From a virus (taxonomy: Duplodnaviria; Heunggongvirae; Uroviricota; Caudoviricetes): DNA of 19,547 nt. Shown in pieces: positions 1,532 to 19,547 of this stretch (positions are counted from its first letter, which is position 1; each line of letters opens with the position of its first letter). The stretch lies in IMG/VR virus record IMGVR_UViG_2574180220_000004; one strand, written 5' to 3'. The translations under genes were made by a program, and so were the position numbers. Under the pieces are notes generated by a model that saw only the letters and a program-made list of their open reading frames with translations, had not been told where the DNA came from and made no database searches.

Positions 1532-1741
1532 TTAATTTGAATACAATGCAATTCTCGAGGACTGAAGTTTCTCGCAATTAAAATTTATCAGTTTTACTTT
1601 CTGCTCTCTGGAAACGCCTGCTTCTTTTTTACCTGAGAGCATTTTTTCGCATTCTGATTTCGTTAGTTTAGATTTTGAATATCTTGTCCAGTTAGTAGGA
1701 GTGCCACCTTCCTTTTCAATAGTGGCGGTAATTTTATACAT
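1532..1741 (-). CDS. ydaC: Small Rac-prophage protein, YdaC-like (69 aa)
   Basis: ORF 1532..1813 trimmed to the ATG at 1741..1739 (MYKITATIEKEGG...). Its 5' end overlaps the 3' end of ralR by 8 nt. Confidence 0.7.
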   Translation of the reverse strand: MYKITATIEKEGGTPTNWTRYSKSKLTKSECEKMLSGKKEAGVSREQKVKLINFNCEKLQSSRIALYSN

Positions 1742-2794: not shown

Positions 2795-5387
2795 TTGCAT
2801 ATTCCTTAGCCCAGCGGGGCAGTGATAATGTCTTAATAGCTGGCCATTCATCGGTATTCAGGCAGTCAGACAGGGTTCGCAGATTGCGGTGATATTCCTG
2901 TTGACCTGTCAGTTTTGCTTCTTCGCCCATCATGAAAATTTCAACCGGATAACGTCCGCATTCAATAGTTGTGCTGGCAACCAGAAAAACGAAAGTTGGC
3001 TGCACTCCAAACTGTGCTTCATAACCGTCACTGTAGAATGCATCCTGAACGTGATAGCGGTAGTCGTAATAAGCGGTTTTGAATCGTTGAATATCCGCCG
3101 TAGTTTTCACGTCCATGATCCAGTGAAATTCAGGGATAATTTTGTCCGGACGGCACCGACACAAAATTCCTGTTTCAGGATCTTCCCAGTAAATTGATGA
3201 TTCAGCGTGTCCGGCGCTTTCAACAAGCCATTGCCCCAGCGGCAAAGCCATAACGCTTTGATACATGAGTTCAATTTTCCGGCCTTCTTCCGCAGTGATA
3301 ACCGTTTTTCCTGTGCTTGCGCATTCCATCAGAAACGCCTTCTCTTCTTCTTTTCCGGCGTTTGTACGGCGGTTAAATTCAGGTGCTACGATAAAGCGGT
3401 TACTGAATTCCTCCGGTTCAAGTACCCGGCAGTGGAAAGCGGTTCCTAAATCGAGCGTTTTTGTCTTTGTGGTGTCCACGGGGGCATTTTTACGCCACAA
3501 ATATAGTGCCGGAGTATCAGCAATGTCATCGAGCTGAGACTTACTGACACCGGGACCCGCATGGTAATTCTCATTCGAAATTCCGTAATAAATACCTGGC
3601 TCTATGTCTTCTACGATTACGGGATCTGCGACTTCGCCAGTTTCATCACTGCAATCGCGATGCGGATCGCTGCCAGCATTCTCATTGTGCGGATGTTCAG
3701 CGCCTTCCATTTCCTCCGGATCATTTTCCTTAGCTTCAACCTGACTCTCTTCATCGAATGTTTCCTGGTATGTTGCGTCGCCCATCACCGCACCACAGTC
3801 AGGGCAGTTACCCCCGCCAGTCTGGCCGCAGGCATTGCAGGCTATTTCCGGTTCCTGTTGCACTACTGGCTCAGGTTGATTCATATCCGGGCTGGTTTTT
3901 TCCGTTTCTGGCTGGTTCTGGTACACACAATCGCGAGTCTGGATCCCATTTACCCATTTCGGATCGTTCGGGTCGCTAATTCCGTCAACAAATTCACCAC
4001 GTGATGCAGCAAGCAATTTATCGGCATCGACAGGATTTTTTGATGGAATGTTTTTCCGGGCTTCATGGAGTTCTGCCCGCAGTTCCTGATATTTCGCATC
4101 AACAGAATTTACCTGTGACTGAGCATCCAGCGGCTGCGTGTCCTGATGATGTTCAGTTGCGTCCGGTTCCATTGTTTCAGCCTCTCCCTGTTCAACTGCC
4201 GTTGTTCCAGATGGTTGCGGTTTTTCTTCATCATCCTGTTTTCCTTCTTCTGTTACTCGCTGCGGCATCGGGGCAGAGGAGCGACCGCAGGCAATATCCA
4301 CGATTTCCGGATCAGGGTTGGCATGATCGGTTTCAGTCAGTACTTTGTTCAGATATTCAGTGACGTGCGCGGGGATGACCTCGATCCCAATTGGTGCTTC
4401 TTTTACGGACGCAACCACGATGGCGCGGGAATAATCCAGCCCGCCAGGCATGGTGATGAATTTGTCGCGGAAAACAGAAAAGGGCGGTTTATTTTCAGCG
4501 ATAATTTCCTCAATGCGTTTAGCGTGTGCCGGATGAAGGTTATAGATGTCCAGATCCATTGAACGGGCCAGTACGCCAGTGGCTACGTCGCGCGCCAGTG
4601 ACGTCAGATCGTGTACGAAACCTTCGCCGCGATCGGTGAGGTTTCCGCCGCCAGCATTAGCACCGGAAGCCGTGCGAGTGATGTGTGAAACACGATTACC
4701 CTTCATCCACTCTTTTGTCAGCAGTCCTCGATCGGTGTAGTCAGCGTTCAGGTATGCTTCGAAAAAAGCAGTTATCAGTCCCAGGTTTGAATTACCAGGA
4801 TTAGGGAAAACTTTGTCAGTGTCACGAACCAGTTTGTGGAGTTCGCGAATTTCCAGCGGGTCGAGCAGGCTGGTTTTGTGGGAAACAGCCAGGGCAGTAA
4901 CAGCCGGTAGTTCTTCAGCCCGAGCAATGTGTAATGCCTGGAGTCCGTCGCGTGAAACGTGCGTTACCGGTTTTTCGCTGCCGTGTTGAGCAAGCCAACG
5001 AATGGGCAGTTCCTGGCCAGAAATTGGGAGTAGCATATTCTCCTCAATCTCAGTCATGTCTTCGCCGTTGACGTTGGTATTGCCTTGATAGTGAGCGTTG
5101 TCTGGTGCTGCTCCCGGTTTTAGTTCCCATGTCATGGAGTCTTTGCTGAGTTGATAGCGTTCACTCCAGGTAAAATCGATCTCACCTTCAGCGGGCAGGT
5201 CATTAACGACAGGAAAATTCGTGGCAACAGCTTTAAAATAGCTGCTCAGTTTTTTACCTGACTTAACGATCAGGTAGTCCAGAGTGGCACAGGTCGATTC
5301 AAAATCGTTGCTTGCCCACAGGACGACGTCAGGTTCACCGGATGATTTTTTCGCTTTCCGTAACAGGAAGAGTGGTTTTGTGCTCAT
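2787..5387 (-). CDS. recE: RecE exonuclease VIII, 866 aa
   Basis: 866-aa ORF with ATG at 5387..5385; acidic low-complexity central region and C-terminal nuclease domain as recalled for RecE; coupled to recT. Confidence 0.93.
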
Positions 5388-10548: not shown

Positions 10549-11070
10549 TGAAAATTCCTCAAGTTGGAGAGTTCTGGAACATTAAGGCGAGGTGGCAGTA
10601 ATGCACCATCTGTAATCTTTTGATACTGACGTAATCGGGCCTGATGTGCAACGCCTTGCAAGTATGTAACTCATTGAAAACGATCATTTTTATCTATTGA
10701 CATCAAATGGCAAACTGTCATTGTGCGGCTATGGCAAGTGGCAAATGCTTATAAATCATATGGATATAAATGGTACAGAAAGAGTTGTTTTCTCTAGGAT
10801 ATGAGTATACGCCCAATGCTGATTGGTTGAATTTTGTTCTTGTTTTAAAGGGTAAGAGTTTAAAGTGTTGGCAGTGATGTATTGGATAGTTAGAATTGCT
10901 GTGGGTGCTTGAGGCTATCTGCCTCGGGCATGAACACCAAAGGTAGATAGAGAAAAGCCCCAGTTAACATTACGCGTCCTGCAAGACGTTTAACATTAAT
11001 CTGAGGCCATATCTATGCGACACATAGAGATTAGCCTCTTACGGACCGAAAGGTCAAGGAGAAGCAGGCT

Positions 11071-11196
11071 ATGAAGCAGCAAAAGGCGATGTTAATCGCC
11101 CTGATCGTCATCTGTTTAACCGTCATAGTGACGGCACTGGTAACGAGGAAAGACCTCTGCGAGGTACGAATCCGAACTGGCAGACGGAGGCTCTGA
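11071..11196 (+). CDS. Hok/Gef-family type I toxin homologue, 41 codons, apparently C-terminally truncated
   Basis: MKQQKAMLIALIVICLTVIVTALVTRKDLCEVRIRTG matches the conserved Hok/Gef N-terminus and transmembrane segment; AAGGAG SD 9 nt upstream. ORF stops after TGRRRL; the family-conserved GQTE is encoded in the +1 frame. Confidence 0.6.
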   Translation: MKQQKAMLIALIVICLTVIVTALVTRKDLCEVRIRTGRRRL

Positions 11197-13087: not shown

Positions 13088-13377
13088 TGGTGGATTTACG
13101 TAAAGCGGCGCGGGGGCGGATGTGCACCGTCAGAATTCTTGGCTACTGCAATCACGATCCGGAAACGTCTGTGCTGGCGCATTACCGACTGGCGGGAACG
13201 TGCGGAACAGCGACAAAACCACACGATATGCAGGCGGCGATTGCCTGTAGCTCATGCCACGATTTAATCGACGGGCGGGTAAAAACAAGCGATTACACCA
13301 AAGAAGATTTACGCCTGATGCATGCAGAAGGTGTTTTTCGCACGCAAGAAATCTGGAGAAAGGAAGGTTATTTATGA
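13087..13377 (+). CDS. YbcO-like Cys-rich nin-region protein (DUF1364-type putative nuclease), 96 aa
   Basis: MVDLRKAARGRMCTVRILGYCNHDPETSVLAH...CSSCHD with Cys cluster; resembles recalled DLP12 YbcO. Coupled to both neighbours. Confidence 0.75.
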   Translation: MVDLRKAARGRMCTVRILGYCNHDPETSVLAHYRLAGTCGTATKPHDMQAAIACSSCHDLIDGRVKTSDYTKEDLRLMHAEGVFRTQEIWRKEGYL

Positions 13378-13916
13378 TTTACCCAACAAATACAGGCAAA
13401 AGCGGGGAACACCTTCGTCTCACCACGCTGGAAAGTGTCTGGATTCAGGGAAAACTGCGCATGTGGGGGCGCTGGTCGTATATTGGCGGCGGTAAGACGG
13501 GGAATATGTTCAACCAGTTGTTGGCCTCTAAAAAGCTGACAAAAACGGCAATTAACGAGGCGCTCCGGAGGATGAAAAAAGCAGGTCTGAACAAGTCTGA
13601 ACTTGAGGCTTTTTTGCGGGATATGATTAACGGTAAGCAAAAGAGCTGGCTGGCGCATTGTACTGATGCAGAGGCGTTATGTATTGATCGGGTCATAAGT
13701 GAGGTGCTGGTAGAGCATCCAGGATTGATTAGCGTCCTTCGGCAACGGTATGAGGGGCGGGGGATGACCAAACGCAAAATGGCTGAATTGCTAAATGATG
13801 CACACCCAGAGTGGTGTTTTAGCACATGCGAAAAGCGAATTGCTAATTGGTTGGCCGTTGCTGAGTATGCGCTATACATTCCCATGCGAGAATCATTCGC
13901 TCAAAAAACGGCTTGA
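13374..13916 (+). CDS. Putative late-gene antiterminator Q-like protein, 180 aa
   Basis: Start at ATG 13374 (ATGA overlap with the upstream stop). Last gene before a terminator, the tRNA genes and the lysis cassette. W-G-x-W-rich N-terminal region resembles Q-family proteins as recalled; weak. Confidence 0.5.
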   Translation: MIYPTNTGKSGEHLRLTTLESVWIQGKLRMWGRWSYIGGGKTGNMFNQLLASKKLTKTAINEALRRMKKAGLNKSELEAFLRDMINGKQKSWLAHCTDAEALCIDRVISEVLVEHPGLISVLRQRYEGRGMTKRKMAELLNDAHPEWCFSTCEKRIANWLAVAEYALYIPMRESFAQKTA

Positions 13917-14003
13917 TTTTTTACGCATAAACTGCTTCAATTTTGCTACGCTTCGCAAAGCTGTATCGCGAGGCGAATCAAGCGCAATTAAACTTTAATA
14001 GAA

Positions 14004-14029
14004 CCCGCCATCAAGCGGGTTTTGTTGTT
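14004..14029 (+). terminator. Intrinsic terminator (CCCGC-CATCAA-GCGGG then TTTTGTTGTT)
   Basis: Read directly; about 90 nt downstream of the Q-like stop, compatible with a tR'-like element. Confidence 0.6.
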
Positions 14030-14039
14030 ATTGTGGTGT

Positions 14040-14200
14040 GATATAAGAAACGACATTTAATATTGCCTTCAAAATAAATTTGTTTATATATTGTCGCGTA
14101 TATTTTAAGTGAAGGTGAAATGTTCACATAAAATAAAAATACATAAATAAATTTACATAGCTTGACGCAAAGTGTTGTTGCGATTGGAATATTAAATTGT
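14040..14200 (+). promoter_or_regulatory. AT-rich UP-like region with a TTGACG -35-like hexamer (14162-14167) upstream of the tRNA genes
   Basis: Very AT-rich tract followed by TTGACG; no convincing -10 at canonical spacing could be assigned by eye. Confidence 0.3.
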
Positions 14201-14268
14201 ATCATCGAAAACGGTTCTGAGGGGGAACTCTTCTTTGCTCGGTGATATCGCTCCCCTGAAGAACCAAT

Positions 14269-14344
<76 letters not shown>

Positions 14345-14347
14345 TAT

Positions 14348-14423
<76 letters not shown>

Positions 14424-14428
14424 TTAGA

Positions 14429-14554
14429 GTCTTTCAGTCTGCGATGATGGGAAATCCCGGAGTGACTGAAAGACGTTTAAGTTATGAATGATCGCTTTTT
14501 TTTGCAAAATTGCTGTGCAGAAATACTAACCTTCGGGCAGGCGATCATTCATAA
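14429..14554 (+). repeat. Two perfect inverted repeats with large loops in the tRNA trailer (11 bp at 14429-14439/14464-14474; 14 bp at 14482-14495/14541-14554)
   Basis: Arms read directly and reverse-complemented by hand; loops of 24 and 45 nt. No ORF over 15 codons in this stretch. Confidence 0.55.
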
Positions 14555-14629
14555 GCACTCTGCTTTTATTCCGATTAACTGTGGGTGGTTTGTTGGATAG
14601 AGTGCTTTCCTTACTGTATATATTGTTTC

Positions 14630-14654
14630 GCCCGCTTTTGCGGGCTTTTCTTTT
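14630..14654 (+). terminator. Strong intrinsic terminator (GCCCGC-TTTT-GCGGGC then TTTTCTTTT)
   Basis: Perfect 6-bp GC stem, 4-nt loop and U-tract; about 60 nt upstream of the holin RBS. Confidence 0.8.
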
Positions 14655-14714
14655 CAAATCCCTTTCATTTCTCAGTGTAAAACTAAGCCATCCGTTATTT
14701 GCGGAGGTGAGGCT

Positions 14715-14930
14715 ATGAAATCCATGGACAAAATTTCAACGGGCATTGCCTATGGCACCTCCGCAGGCAGTGCTGGCTACTGGTTTTTACAGTGGCTTGA
14801 TCAGGTCAGTCCGTCACAGTGGGCTGCGATTGGTGTGCTGGGGAGTCTGGTTCTGGGCTTCCTGACTTATCTGACAAATCTGTACTTCAAAATCAGAGAA
14901 GACAAGCGTAAGGCTGCACGGGGAGAGTAA
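14715..14930 (+). CDS. Class II pinholin, phage-21 S type, 71 aa with dual start
   Basis: [28 protein letters not shown]... matches recalled S21; two in-frame starts (ATG 14715 and ATG 14724); GGAGGTGA SD; two transmembrane segments. Confidence 0.9.
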
Positions 14931-15348: not shown

Positions 15349-15882
15349 ATGAACGCAAAAATCAGATACGGCCTGTCGGCTGCCGTTCTGGCACTGATTG
15401 CCGTCGGTGCGCCCGCGCCTGATATTCTCGACCAGTTTCTGGATGAAAAAGAAGGTAACCACACAACGGCATACCGCGATGGGTCCGGCATCTGGACCAT
15501 CTGTCGGGGTGCCACGATGGTGGATGGAAAACCCGTTTTTCCCGGTATGAAACTGTCGAAGGAAAAATGCGACCAGGTCAACGCCATTGAGCGTGATAAG
15601 GCGCTGGCATGGGTGGAGCGCAATATTAAAGTACCACTGACCGAGCCACAAAAAGCGGGTATAGCGTCATTCTGTCCCTATAACATTGGCCCCGGTAAGT
15701 GTTTCCCGTCGACGTTTTATAAGCGGCTGAATGCCGGTGATCGTAAGGGCGCATGCGAGGCGATTCGCTGGTGGATAAAAGATGGTGGGCGCGATTGCCG
15801 CATACGTTCAAATAACTGCTATGGACAGGTTATTCGTCGTGACCAGGAAAGCGCATTAGCCTGTTGGGGGATAGAGCAGTGA
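15349..15882 (+). CDS. SAR endolysin (T4-lysozyme-like muramidase, R21 type), 177 aa
   Basis: N-terminal signal-anchor-release segment ([16 protein letters not shown]) followed by the E...D...T catalytic region ([23 protein letters not shown]). Confidence 0.9.
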
Positions 15883-16343
15883 GCAGAGTCGCCGCGATTA
15901 TTTATGCTTTGGTTATCTGCATCATCGTCTGCCTGTCGTGGACGGTCAATCATTACCGTGATAACGCCACCGCCTACAAAGAGCAGCGCGACAAAAATGC
16001 CAGAGAACTGAAGCTGGCGAACGCGGCAATTACTGACATGCAGATGCGTCAGCGTGATGTTGCTGCGCTCGATGCAAAATACACGAAGGAGTTAGCTGAT
16101 GCGAAAGCTGAAAATGATGCTCTGCGTGATGATGTTGCCGCTGGTCGTCGTCGGTTGCACATCAAAGCAGTCTGTCAGTCAGTGCGTGAAGCCACCACCG
16201 CCTCCGGCGTGGATAATGCAGCCTCCCCCCGACTGGCAGACACCGCTGAACGGGATTATTTCACCCTCCGGGAACGACTGGTAATGATGCAGGCCCAACT
16301 TGAAGGTGCTCAGCAATACATAACCGAACAGTGTTTAAAGTAA
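15879..16343 (+). CDS. Rz i-spanin, ~154 aa
   Basis: Start assigned to GTG 15879 overlapping the endolysin stop (GTGA); N-terminal transmembrane segment and coiled-coil-rich periplasmic domain; matches recalled Rz-like sequences. Confidence 0.85.
16099..16284 (+). CDS. Rz1 o-spanin lipoprotein embedded in the +1 frame of Rz, 61 aa
   Basis: Signal peptide with lipobox LVVVGC; proline-rich mature part ([15 protein letters not shown]); AAGGAG SD 7 nt upstream. Confidence 0.82.
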
Positions 16344-16429
16344 AATCTTAACTACAATATGATTCATTTTGATGATTGTTTCATAAGGAACAGTGAAGTA
16401 AGATCTAAGAGGAGTTAAATTTTATACAG

Positions 16430-16435
16430 TATAAT
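16430..16435 (+). promoter_or_regulatory. Consensus -10 hexamer TATAAT upstream of trkG
   Basis: Perfect TATAAT followed by AAGGTGG SD (16450-16456); no good -35 found by eye. Confidence 0.25.
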
Positions 16436-16480
16436 CATAATATTGCAGCAAGGTGGTTATAATTGAAAGAATATTTAGAT

Positions 16481-17937
16481 ATGAATACATCTCATGTAAG
16501 AGTTGTTACTCATATGTGTGGGTTCCTGGTTTGGCTCTATAGTCTTTCAATGTTGCCACCAATGGTTGTAGCATTGTTTTATAAAGAAAAAAGCCTGTTC
16601 GTTTTCTTTATAACTTTCGTTATATTTTTTGTATTGGTGGCGGAGCGTGGTATACAACTAAGAAATCTGGCATTCAATTACGTACCCGTGATGGGTTTAT
16701 TATAATTGTAATGTTTTGGATTTTGTTTTCTGTTATTAGTGCATTCCCTTTATGGATTGACTCAGAACTTAATTTAACGTTCATTGATGCTCTGTTTGAA
16801 GGGGTTTCTGGAATAACAACAACAGGAGCAACTGTAATTGATGATGTTAGTTCATTACCTCGGGCATATTTGTACTATCGGTCACAGTTAAATTTTATAG
16901 GTGGTTTAGGAGTTATTGTTCTGGCGGTTGCTGTATTGCCATTATTGGGTATTGGTGGTGCAAAGCTTTATCAGTCAGAAATGCCGGGGCCATTTAAGGA
17001 TGACAAACTCACTCCCCGCCTGGCCGATACGTCACGGACACTGTGGATAACTTATTCTTTATTAGGTATTGCTTGTATTGTCTGTTATAGACTTGCAGGA
17101 ATGCCTTTGTTTGATGCTATTTGTCACGGGATTTCCACAGTTTCGCTTGGTGGTTTCTCAACTCATAGCGAGAGTATCGGATATTTTAATAACTATTTGG
17201 TTGAGCTGGTGGCTGGTTCTTTTTCCCTGCTATCGGCTTTCAACTTCACTCTTTGGTATATTGTTATTAGCAGGAAAACGATAAAACCTTTAATCAGAGA
17301 TATTGAACTTCGTTTCTTTCTGTTAATAGCCTTAGGGGTGATCATTGTTACCTCTTTCCAGGTCTGGCATATAGGTATGTATGACTTGCATGGAAGTTTT
17401 ATTCATTCGTTTTTTCTTGCCAGCTCCATGCTCACTGATAATGGTTTAGCTACGCAGGATTATGCAAGCTGGCCCACGCACACGATAGTGTTTTTGCTGT
17501 TGTCAAGTTTCTTTGGGGGATGTATAGGTTCAACTTGTGGTGGAATTAAGTCACTTCGATTTCTTATACTTTTCAAACAAAGCAAACACGAGATAAATCA
17601 GCTTTCTCATCCCAGAGCGTTGTTGAGTGTAAATGTAGGAGGGAAGATAGTTACAGATCGTGTAATGAGGTCTGTATGGAGTTTCTTTTTTCTTTATACT
17701 CTCTTCACGGTGTTTTTTATACTGGTGTTAAATGGTATGGGATATGATTTTCTTACATCATTTGCAACAGTGGCTGCATGTATTAATAATATGGGATTAG
17801 GTTTTGGGGCTACTGCATCGTCATTCGGAGTGCTTAATGACATTGCAAAATATTTAATGTGCATAGCTATGATTCTTGGTCGCCTTGAAATTTATCCTGT
17901 TATTATATTGTTTTCAGGTTTTTTTTGGCGCTCCTAA
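16481..17937 (+). pseudogene. trkG: TrkG-type potassium transporter subunit, reading frame broken by an apparent 1-nt loss in a T-run (16625-16630)
   Basis: The N-terminal 49 residues (MNTSHVRVVTHMCGFLVWLYSL...) are in one frame that stops at 16705; the rest (from about 16630: ...RTRDGFIIIVMFWILFSVIS...GITTTGATV...) continues in the +1 frame as track ORF 16711..17937. Confidence 0.75.
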
Positions 17938-18074
17938 TATATGGCTGATTTATAATTGTGAGTTTAATATTATGTTGACTCACTCATTGATCCAATACCT
18001 AACTTTACCAGCAACACCTCCGCCCCCAGTAGCACTGGCTGCTGGGGTGCGTTTTATTCATAAAGCAAGGATGT

Positions 18075-19547
18075 ATGAGCGAGAAATTAAAGATAGTCTA
18101 TTCTACGTATTCTTCAGGCGCACCACGCTTACAGGTTTCCAAATCTGGTTTGTGGGGTTGTCATAATGGCACTGGCTGGTTGCCATTAGCTGTTGGGCAA
18201 GGAGGTACAGGTGCGACAACAGTAGAAGATGCGCGAAACAACTTAAGTCTTGGCGAAAGTAGCGCAGTTAAATTTAAAAACCTTACTTTAACCGAAGCGC
18301 TCGACACGACATTAGGACTGCTTACAAAAACAGGACGAGACTGGAACACGCAGCATACTGATAACATTAATAAATTTATACCAATTGCAGGCAGTACAAA
18401 CGGCCCGGCAGGTTCTATGGTTCTTGGCGGCATTCATGTTCAATTTAGTAAAAATTATGCTGTGCAGTTCGGAGGCCGCAATTCCGGTTTTTGGGGAAGA
18501 ACAGTTGAAAACGGAACGACGCAGGAATGGAAGAAATTACTAACAGTAGACGATCTAAATTCATCCACCGATCTTGCTGTCAGGTCATTAACCACATCTA
18601 ACCCGTTAAAATCTGGCGGAGGGCGGATTGATGTCCTTGGAAGCACGTCAGATTATAGCAAAATGGATTGCTTTGTACGTGGGTTTGATAGCACCGGTAA
18701 TTCTCTCGCGTGGGCGTTGGGTTCATCAGTCGGCGTAAGTAAGATGCTGTCGCTAAAAAATTTCTTTAGCGGAGCTGAGATACTGCTAAATGGTAATGAC
18801 GGCGCGGTTCAACTCAAAACAGGTGCTGTTAACGGGGCTAAAGCACAGGCGCTCACTATCAACAAGGATGAGGTTAACTCAACTGTTGATTTAACCCTTA
18901 CAAAGCAAACAGGGACTGGCAATCGTTTTGTTTTACAGAACTCAGGTAATGCAGAACTACCGTTTTCTGTCAGGGTGTGGGGTTCCAGTACTCGACAAAA
19001 CGTTTTTGAGGTTGGCACGTCTGCTGCGTATCTGTTTTATGCGCAAAAAACAACAGACGGGCAAAACCTTACTGTAAACGGAAGTGTTAACTGCACCACA
19101 CTGAATCAGTCATCAGACCGCAGACTGAAAGAAAATATCGAGATTATCGATAACGCGACTGACGCAATCCGCAAAATTAATGGATACACGTACACGCTCA
19201 AGGAGAATGGGGCACATTGCGCCGGGGTTATAGCCCAGGAAGTTGAAGAGGCCATCCCGGAGGCCGTTGGTTCATTCATCCATTACGGTGAAGAGTTGCA
19301 AGGCCCGACCGTTGACGGCAACGAGCTACGCGAAGAAACGCGCTATCTTAATGTTGACTACGCCGCCGTGACGGGTTTACTTGTTCAGGTCGCCCGTGAA
19401 ACAGATGATCGCGTTACCGCGCTGGAAGAGGAAAACACAACGCTACGTGAAAATCTGGCAACAGCAGACACCCGGATCAGCACTCTGGAAAATCAGGTAA
19501 GCGAACTGGTTGCACTTGTCCGGCAGTTAACAGGAAGCGAACATTGA
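18075..19547 (+). CDS. Tail-fibre/tail-spike-like protein with C-terminal intramolecular chaperone (peptidase S74-like) domain, 490 aa
   Basis: GGTGATT...ARNNLSLG fibre-type motif near the N-terminus; C-terminal SDRRLKENIEIIDNA...GYTYTLKENGAHCAGVIAQEVEE followed by a coiled coil, typical of auto-cleaving chaperone domains. Stop codon is the last triplet of the window. Confidence 0.75.
   Translation: MSEKLKIVYSTYSSGAPRLQVSKSGLWGCHNGTGWLPLAVGQGGTGATTVEDARNNLSLGESSAVKFKNLTLTEALDTTLGLLTKTGRDWNTQHTDNINKFIPIAGSTNGPAGSMVLGGIHVQFSKNYAVQFGGRNSGFWGRTVENGTTQEWKKLLTVDDLNSSTDLAVRSLTTSNPLKSGGGRIDVLGSTSDYSKMDCFVRGFDSTGNSLAWALGSSVGVSKMLSLKNFFSGAEILLNGNDGAVQLKTGAVNGAKAQALTINKDEVNSTVDLTLTKQTGTGNRFVLQNSGNAELPFSVRVWGSSTRQNVFEVGTSAAYLFYAQKTTDGQNLTVNGSVNCTTLNQSSDRRLKENIEIIDNATDAIRKINGYTYTLKENGAHCAGVIAQEVEEAIPEAVGSFIHYGEELQGPTVDGNELREETRYLNVDYAAVTGLLVQVARETDDRVTALEEENTTLRENLATADTRISTLENQVSELVALVRQLTGSEH

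Follow-up and report, generated by a model that had tools for sequence, protein, structure and literature searches.

The stretch of DNA considered here is the IMG/VR virus record IMGVR_UViG_2574180220_000004 (Duplodnaviria; Heunggongvirae; Uroviricota; Caudoviricetes), whose whole length of 19,547 nucleotides (nt) is referred to as the window. It is a lambdoid, Rac-like Escherichia coli prophage, and its late region carries, on the + strand, the gene of the antiterminator Q, a first terminator, genes for tRNA-Thr and tRNA-Gly, a non-coding segment and the lysis cassette. That segment (14423-14655), called the trailer below, is the subject of this analysis. It consists of three hairpin modules of the + strand RNA, named P1, P2 and P3, and of an intrinsic terminator.

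A first-pass annotation of the window had drawn attention to two perfect inverted repeats in the trailer. Both are present, shifted by one base from the positions it implied: the arms of the first (14429-14439, GTCTTTCAGTC; 14464-14474, GACTGAAAGAC) are 11 nt long and 24 nt apart, those of the second (14482-14495, TTATGAATGATCGC; 14541-14554, GCGATCATTCATAA) are 14 nt long and 45 nt apart, and both pairs are 100% complementary. A third perfect repeat, absent from that annotation, has 9-nt arms at 14553-14561 and 14599-14607. The repeats had been judged improbable by chance, and this is confirmed: when 14423-14654 was shuffled 2000 times with dinucleotides preserved and the longest perfect inverted repeat with a loop of at most 60 nt was recorded, a repeat of at least 11 nt appeared in two shuffles and one of at least 14 nt in none; three repeats of at least 9 nt were found together in 0 of 2000. 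Folded as + strand RNA, the whole trailer reaches -83.1 kcal/mol (z = -5.9 against shuffles) and the individual hairpins P1-P3 have z scores between -4.5 and -4.7; the - strand folds at -65 kcal/mol. The strong terminator that had been described after the repeats is of the intrinsic (Rho-independent) type, with six G-C pairs and a 4-nt loop (14630-14645) followed by the tail TTTTCTTTTC. The trailer RNA would end at this terminator, which would also be the final barrier ahead of the holin gene.

The repeats are the stems of P1, P2 and P3 (Table 1). What had been taken for unusually large loops between the arms is filled by further conserved helices, namely P1a, P2a, P2b and the inner helices of P3, the last module being a long irregular hairpin with a conserved, G/U-rich apex, GGGUGGUUUGUUGG. 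Upstream of P1, the linker that follows the tRNA is constantly 6-7 nt long and A/U-rich in homologues (GUUAGA, GUUUAA, GUAAAA, GUCAGA). A T-tract at the P2/P2a junction (14496-14503) varies from T6 to T9 among otherwise nearly identical copies.

Comparison of homologues shows that this structure is under selection. In a first alignment, 21 sequences less than 97% identical to one another were aligned by MAFFT, independently of structure, and the RNAalifold consensus recovered P1, P2, P2a and P3. In this alignment 96.9% of the cells in 60 pairs form standard pairs, versus 38-47% when the 3' partner is slid by 1-3 columns; compensatory double changes occur at 12 of the 60 pairs, and the covariation score was reached by 0 of 500 shuffles. 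A covariance model, R1, was then used to align 97 matches, 61 of them distinct; in this model-fitted alignment, which leans towards structure, 97.7% of the cells are paired and 21 of 60 pairs have changed on both sides, much of this signal being given by a few deep lineages (the window type, the HK639 type and the type of locus L010; related loci carry L numbers), with fewer independent events than the cell counts suggest. Covariation affects seven of 13 stem pairs in P1, while double changes are found at eight of 15 outer-stem pairs and two of eight P2a pairs in P2, and at four of eight outer pairs in P3. Outlying copies rebuild the helices differently, as in P2a of L185 (UUUUUAU/AUAAAAA) and in the P3 stems of L132, L162 and L167. 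The first-pass description of the trailer as a structured non-coding RNA is thus borne out across related prophages. In addition, the + strand alignment contains 167 G·U cells and 15 A·C cells; selection therefore acts on the + strand RNA, which has the sense of the late operon, and not on duplex DNA or on a - strand transcript.

The stems drift, and three unpaired regions are nearly invariant in sequences that are only ~77% identical overall: the internal loop of P1, whose bases are invariant in 20-21 of 21 non-redundant sequences, the apical loop of P2a and the apex of P3. The flanks of the element are unalignable between lineages although these loops are conserved. Such conserved unpaired bases point to sequence-specific recognition.

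Table 1. Features of the prophage late region and RNA genes elsewhere in the window.
Feature	Position	Strand	Evidence or remark
RalA, antitoxin small RNA of RalR	1557-1735		Rfam, 225 bits
sok	10903-11073		Rfam, 101.5 bits
Antiterminator Q (DUF1133 / Phage_antitermQ)	13254-13916	+	Pfam PF06576, E = 2.5e-107; PF06530, 26.7 bits
Short leader and first terminator (13996-14027), directly 3' of Q	13936-14031	+	Terminator scan
Candidate sigma-70 promoter of the tRNA operon, TTGCGA / 16-nt spacer / TATCAT	14178-14205	+	Consensus scan, 9/12 matches; putative function
Leader hairpin 5' of tRNA-Thr, inverted repeat with 14-nt arms, 79% complementary	14213-14265	+	-20.4 kcal/mol, z = -2.5
tRNA-Thr (UGU)	14269-14344	+	ARAGORN; Rfam tRNA model, 73.8 bits
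tRNA-Gly (UCC), CCA encoded	14348-14422	+	ARAGORN; Rfam tRNA model, 63.4 bits
A/U-rich linker GUUAGA, from the CCA end of tRNA-Gly to P1	14423-14428	+	Putative RNase E cut site and 5' end of the trailer
P1: 11-bp stem, conserved internal loop UGCGAUGAU / GGAGU, inner helix GGG/CCC with variable loop	14429-14474	+	-22.5 kcal/mol, z = -4.5
P2: 14-bp outer stem closing a three-way junction (P2a, P2b)	14482-14554	+	-26.3 kcal/mol, z = -4.7
P2a: A/U-rich hairpin UUUUUGCA/UGCAGAAA, apical loop AAAUUGCUG	14499-14523	+	
P2b: small hairpin CC-UUCG-GG	14530-14537	+	
P3: outer 8-bp stem GCACUCUG/UAGAGUGC, asymmetric internal loop, inner helices UCCGAU/GUUGGA and AACU/GGUU	14555-14605	+	-20.2 kcal/mol, z = -4.5
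A/U-rich spacer, non-conserved	14606-14629	+	Unalignable between lineages
Intrinsic terminator GCCCGC-UUUU-GCGGGC with U-rich tail	14630-14655	+	Terminator scan; hairpin -13.7 kcal/mol
Holin S (P21 type), first lysis-cassette gene downstream of the trailer	14715-14930	+	Pfam PF04971, E = 1.4e-35

In position, the ends of the element match those of the 3' external transcribed spacer (3'ETS) of a tRNA operon. In the window P1 starts 6 nt past the CCA end of tRNA-Gly, and in every copy seen it lies 6-7 nt downstream of an intact tRNA (the CCA end of tRNA-Gly) or of a tRNA-Gly 3' remnant. More generally, a tRNA ends at most 15 nt upstream of the element in 69 of 93 distinct contexts (74%), and this tRNA is almost always tRNA-Gly(UCC). 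On the other side, a clear intrinsic terminator follows P3 by 10-42 nt in 39 of 56 distinct downstream regions and a weakened one in about ten more. The sequences of these terminators are unrelated across lineages, an argument that termination has been selected for at this place. Where the window-type terminator is kept, its stem erodes across homologues (GCGGGC, GCGGTT, GCGTTT) as the T-run lengthens (L001, L011, L013, L018, L030), and the terminator may be weaker in many E. coli copies.

Among the 140 loci examined, Q lies upstream of the element wherever it is recognisable and the downstream gene is a same-strand holin or lysin wherever it is recognised, with at least five holin types represented. 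Thus the element, which is terminated and has the same sense as Q and the lysis genes, occupies the interval between them, and the first-pass comparison of this position with the cargo slot of Stx-type phages was apt. Many related tRNA arrays also share a conserved promoter, TTGCAT-N17-TATCAT-CTCGCTCCC, with a GC-rich discriminator directly before the first tRNA; both were seen within 150 nt upstream of the first tRNA at eight loci (L010, L023, L066, L082, L089, L110, L179 and L217). From its sequence it looks like a stringently controlled stable-RNA promoter and, because a good promoter directly precedes the first tRNA, the prophage tRNA clusters seem to be self-transcribed, autonomous units of the moron type.

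The tRNA sets found in this slot, in the window and at related loci, comprise Thr-UGU, Gly-UCC, Met, Lys-UUU, Arg-UCU, Asn-GUU and odd or suppressor-like species. There is overlap between these sets and the tRNAs reported as targets of anticodon-nuclease defences. Chi sequences (GCTGGTGG) are found close to the tRNA arrays or hairpin modules at four loci (L001, L020, L099, L162).

Elsewhere in the window, the presence of two RNA-antitoxin systems, RalA and sok, fits a Rac-like element. The short leader that follows Q (13936-14031) is kept alongside the same Q type in L066 and L099 and matches the STnc370 model weakly (30.4 bits against a gathering score of 54); it is probably the actual pR'-tR' unit with its short transcript, in a slot like that of StxS and IsrJ. 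Between the first terminator and the tRNA operon lies an A/T-rich spacer with a promoter-like site, and the hairpin located between this site and tRNA-Thr, of which L014 retains the stem ends with a different loop, may be a 5' leader structure of the operon. Holin S is followed by DUF1327, lysozyme and Rz genes and then, 3' of Rz (15864-19547), by a TrkH-family gene like trkG of Rac (16711-17937) and a tail-fibre open reading frame (ORF; 18075-19547) with a Peptidase_S74 domain. Since the TrkH-family and tail-fibre genes directly succeed Rz, the prophage is defective, with head and tail genes missing; its block of Q, tRNAs, trailer and lysis genes is intact.

The trailer is common in E. coli. 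By BLAST it was found in 536 of 5426 complete E. coli genomes (~10%), where every copy is chromosomal and the median number per genome is one; no copy was seen on a plasmid or in dispersed positions, and in 60 sampled E. coli records no feature is annotated over it. E. coli 042 has a copy that is 99.7% identical, and Shigella flexneri is also among the carriers. Homologues are present in the phages phi467, PhiR47_1, vB_EcoS-689R5, vB_EcoM-606R7 and HK639, and a partial one in the Salmonella prophage Fels-1. The element is absent upstream of essD in the DLP12 prophage of strain K-12. Pattern scans of IMG/VR gave more than 130 loci, and a scan with a 14-mer of the P3 loop gave mostly chance matches and nine real loci. 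In a scan of species-representative genomes, true matches were limited to Enterobacteriaceae (Escherichia, Shigella, Enterobacter, Citrobacter, Yokenella, Phytobacter and one Enterobacterales metagenome-assembled genome), most matches outside this family being chance 18-mer matches. In two phage records, ON470583.1 and ON470580.1, a 'hypothetical protein' is annotated over the trailer; this is probably a spurious ORF call, because the frame is not conserved.

Within this distribution the three modules are independently mobile. P2-P3 without P1 stands immediately 3' of tRNA-Gly in L020, L025, L027 and L040, and after protein-coding morons in L007, L029, L039, L170 and L185; P1-P2 is found without P3 in L005 and L058, and P3 alone, with different stems, in L132, L162 and L167. 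In Fels-1 (L250, 1371-1511 and 2001-2075), a tRNA 3' remnant and P1 precede the secreted-protein moron STM0906.1n and P2 follows it, with P3 absent, and the moron appears to have been inserted into the RNA element. Remnants of tRNA 3' ends mark recombination joints in L003, L005, L256, L264 and Fels-1.

The late leader of phage HK639 (L002) contains, in this order, an isrJ-like RNA, tRNA-Asn, a tRNA-Gly remnant, P1-P3 with its terminator, STnc100 with its terminator, a further terminator and the holin gene. The isrJ-like RNA lies right after Q and scores 34.6 bits (gathering 37), and STnc100, right after P1-P3, scores 52.6 bits (gathering 47; 2319-2391 and 2818-3023 for the two RNAs). Both are unannotated in the phage record. 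In HK639 the element is thus part of a series of terminated small-RNA genes, and the slot between Q and the lysis genes holds other small RNAs as well.

Selection on the trailer as an RNA structure is much better established than any trans-acting role. With this distinction in mind, the reading we favour, to which we give about an even chance, is that a small, autonomous tRNA operon of the prophage has 14423-14655 as its 3' trailer, which gives a ~230-nt RNA that acts in trans. The operon would comprise the promoter, the leader hairpin, tRNA-Thr, tRNA-Gly, the trailer and the terminator, in the cargo slot between Q and the lysis cassette. Its own promoter would drive it in the lysogen, and in lytic growth Q-modified polymerase arriving from pR' would transcribe it as well. 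RNase P and RNase E would excise the tRNAs, and RNase E would cut the A/U-rich 6-nt linker after the CCA, as modelled on the general pathway of tRNA 3' maturation in E. coli. The terminator would fix the 3' end, and the resulting discrete RNA, with its 5' end almost flush with the P1 stem and its 3' end in the terminator hairpin, would be stabilised by both. It may then act through its invariant loops, by binding a protein, by base-pairing or as a sponge; other terminated small RNAs of the slot (lambda 6S, StxS, PasD and STnc100) behave in this way. The same terminator would block read-through into holin S unless the polymerase carries Q. Among the three roles put forward in the first-pass annotation, a processed RNA from the tRNA transcript fits best: the start of P1 6-7 nt after the CCA and the usual presence of a terminator after P3 speak for it, and the processing step is our proposal.

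Several points weigh against such a trans-acting RNA. Its 5' cut, its stability and any partner in trans are inferred. Classical Hfq-dependent small RNAs have open seed regions, whereas most of what is conserved here is structured, and at several loci (L007, L040/L061, L110, L170/L185) no terminator follows P3. Moreover, P2-P3 can lie between two protein-coding genes, and P3 past the first late terminator (L132, L167) or after Rz (L162); modules placed in this way would be part of a longer mRNA, which fits a role in cis as well. A search of the 19.5-kb window for antisense targets of the conserved loops gave best duplex energies no better than those of shuffled loops, and the promoter of the window matches the consensus at only 9 of 12 positions.

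A role in cis is the rival with the strongest claim, and we regard it as possible, though distinctly less probable than the trans-acting RNA. The element would be a processing or stability element of the late transcript, made of RNase III or RNase E signals or of protective structures, which separates the tRNA or moron cargo from the lysis mRNA and shields both the downstream mRNA, at its new 5' end, and the upstream cargo, at its 3' end, with no trans function. It is consistent with this that the position of the element is always the late leader and its orientation that of the lysis genes, for every holin and Q type, that P2-P3 occurs between protein-coding genes without a terminator (L007, L170, L185, L040) and P3 alone downstream of the first terminator (L132, L167), and that P1 would stand at the very 5' end remaining after tRNA excision. 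The dimensions also fit, P1 and P3 being irregular helices of ~20 bp and P2 stacked on P2a one of ~23 bp, and RNase III acts on helices of about such length (~20 bp). However, invariant apical and internal loops would be needless in a purely protective hairpin, and the fact that most lineages have independently kept terminators of unrelated sequence immediately 3' of P3 points to a defined short RNA. A further view is that the stems are real and serve no specific function, as generic barriers to transcription or exonucleases followed by a terminator, or as a conserved linker kept by recombination between modules of mosaic phages. The independent shuffling of the modules, the tRNA 3' remnants at recombination joints and the moron between P1 and P2 in Fels-1 speak for it, but we consider it unlikely: compensatory change at 21 of 60 pairs with 97.7% pairing in 61 distinct sequences indicates selection on structure, and the loops are conserved in copies that are only 77% identical overall and whose flanks cannot be aligned.

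The other alternatives are more easily dismissed. A Q-utilisation, nut-like or put-like antitermination element, one of the roles suggested in the first-pass annotation, would account for a position that is flanked by Q and the lysis genes and is directly 5' of a terminator, and the homologue in HK639 could be cited in its favour, since this phage reportedly has RNA-based put antiterminators in its early operons. Against this, Q proteins engage at the late promoter, and the Q-linked leader and terminator, which track the Q type, lie upstream (13936-14031), whereas the hairpins co-occur with unrelated Q families and holin types, or lie far from Q, and P3 is also found after Rz in L162. Neither is there a conserved alternative pairing with the three unrelated types of terminator. 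No CGCUCUUUA-like boxA followed by a boxB with a conserved GNRA-like pentaloop was found in the element: the only small apical loop, that of P1a, varies between copies (AAAU, GUC, UUC, GAAG), and the sole boxA-like string is the tRNA acceptor end. Such a role is therefore very improbable. We give slightly less credit still to a site acting at the DNA level, whether a protein-binding palindrome, as had also been suggested, a cruciform, an attachment site or a miniature transposable element. Perfect inverted repeats would suit such a site, and tRNA 3' ends are common integration targets; nevertheless, G·U pairs are tolerated on the + strand only (167 G·U against 15 A·C cells), the 24-45 nt between the arms are filled with further covarying helices, and copies, of which a genome has a median of one, are confined to the late leader, with none dispersed or on plasmids. 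Finally, the first-pass statement that the trailer holds no ORF is essentially right: a 38-codon ATG ORF (14484-14600) does span P2-P3 in the window, and a small protein made from it, or from a TTG-started frame inside P2-P3, is scarcely credible. The ORF has no Shine-Dalgarno sequence, the internal T-tract ranges from T6 to T9 among nearly identical copies, the HK639 version stops after 21 codons, the homologous bases fall in other frames in the L010 type, and the substitutions are compensatory in stems, not synonymous.

Other identities were considered and set aside. For a riboswitch or attenuator, inspection gave no shared anti-terminator, with three unrelated terminators after P3 and an unconserved spacer. 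A promoter inside P2 (TTGCAA or an extended -10) was rejected as the would-be -10 bases vary in the way that P2a pairing predicts and the scan finds no promoter there. On inspection, P1 is off the consensus geometry of a kink-turn, a box C/D motif, a hammerhead or a boxB. A miniature inverted-repeat transposable element does not match the single place per genome (median), always in a prophage late leader, with no dispersed multi-copy pattern.

One further reading departs from the base-pairing form of the trans-acting RNA. The modules could be sequence-specific ligands of a protein or enzyme that travel with the phage tRNA cargo; we consider this unlikely, yet it accords with the invariance of the loops beside drifting stems, the separate mobility of the modules, the physical tie of P1 to tRNA-Gly and a family range confined to tRNA-bearing late leaders. 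Such a ligand could be an RNA decoy or cofactor that acts, beside the phage tRNAs, against a host defence targeting tRNAs or an RNA-processing enzyme. Alternatively, it could belong to a new class of structured regulatory RNA that controls the switch to lysis.

No known family covers the element. With Rfam 15, no match to 14423-14610 was obtained at gathering thresholds or at E values up to 10; the families weighed include STnc100, IsrJ, IsrK, AgvB, AsxR, GOLLD, ROOL, RtT, GcvB and Y-RNA-like RNAs. The Rfam/Infernal comparison that the first-pass annotation had proposed thus leaves the element without a family. For the HK639 homologue only sub-threshold matches were found, over the part from P3 to the terminator (istR, 26 bits against 45; isrB, 22.5 against 35; rsmX, 21.7 against 56), while the flanking tRNA and STnc100 do score. 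Searches of the literature with the invariant sequence strings returned two chance primer matches only; those on small RNAs from prophage tRNA trailers found no description of the element, and the HK639 papers searched are silent on it.

The trailer can be compared with several RNAs. The small-RNA sponge 3'ETS-leuZ, said to have been described by Lalaouna and colleagues in 2015 as cut from the 3'ETS of a tRNA operon, likewise has its start immediately past the last tRNA and its end at the terminator of the operon, and for the trailer release by tRNA 3' processing would be similar. In contrast to 3'ETS-leuZ, which is ~50 nt long, chromosomal and a plain base-pairing sponge, the trailer is ~230 nt long, prophage-borne and built of three conserved structured modules. 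GOLLD and ROOL, reportedly presented by Weinberg and colleagues in 2009 and 2017, are large structured RNAs located by tRNA genes in prophages of Firmicutes and others. With them the trailer shares the character of an ornate, conserved non-coding RNA of unknown function beside phage tRNA arrays, but they are three to four times larger, belong to different phyla, and have Rfam models that do not match it. The nut (boxA/boxB) and put RNAs, too, are structured RNAs in phage operons upstream of terminators; these are in early operons, however, and their defining features are absent from the trailer. The small RNAs rrA, rrB and rrF, which lie between the dual terminators of rrn operons (PMC8144298), also form the tail of a stable-RNA operon. 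Unlike the trailer, they are chromosomal, unrelated in sequence and made by transcription past the operon's first terminator, a mechanism that is not proposed here.

A second group of relatives is defined by the slot between Q and the lysis genes. Lambda 6S RNA and StxS come from the same region, are expressed in lysogens and are associated with Hfq (bioRxiv 10.1101/2024.10.31.621285); PasD and PasA adjoin Q or the holin gene (bioRxiv 10.64898/2026.05.13.724894). Like lambda 6S, StxS, PasD and IsrJ, the trailer lies in this slot in the sense of the late operon and ends in an intrinsic terminator that Q-modified polymerase must pass. Lambda 6S, its positional analogue, is 194 nt long and its function is still unknown; StxS is active in the lysogenic state. 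However, lambda 6S, StxS, PasD and IsrJ start at pR'; rather than initiating at a Q-dependent promoter directly after Q, the trailer is located ~500 nt after Q, past the first terminator and behind the tRNAs and a second promoter-like site, apparently the operon's own. It is also longer and far more structured than StxS (74 nt) and has no sequence or model similarity to the late-leader small RNAs. Identity with PasA or PasD was rejected, as the partial sequences from the supplement of PMC8550237 do not match. STnc100 (RF02076), a prophage small RNA of ~200 nt that adjoins the element downstream in HK639, resembles it in size, slot and possession of its own terminator; its architecture is different and its model matches neither the window nor the P1-P3 of HK639. 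Taken together, the kind is known, as prophage late-leader small RNAs and tRNA-trailer RNAs, whereas the family and its three-module architecture appear to be new.

The element adds a well-supported structured family to the late-leader slot, which is a source of regulators, such as StxS, PasD, AgvB and STnc100, that link prophages with the physiology and virulence of the host. The covariance model R1 can be used for its annotation, and the invariant loops are direct targets for mutagenesis. Moreover, the operon provides a good illustration of phage tRNAs being followed by a long and conserved 3' trailer, a hint that RNA accessories may accompany the tRNA cargo of phages.

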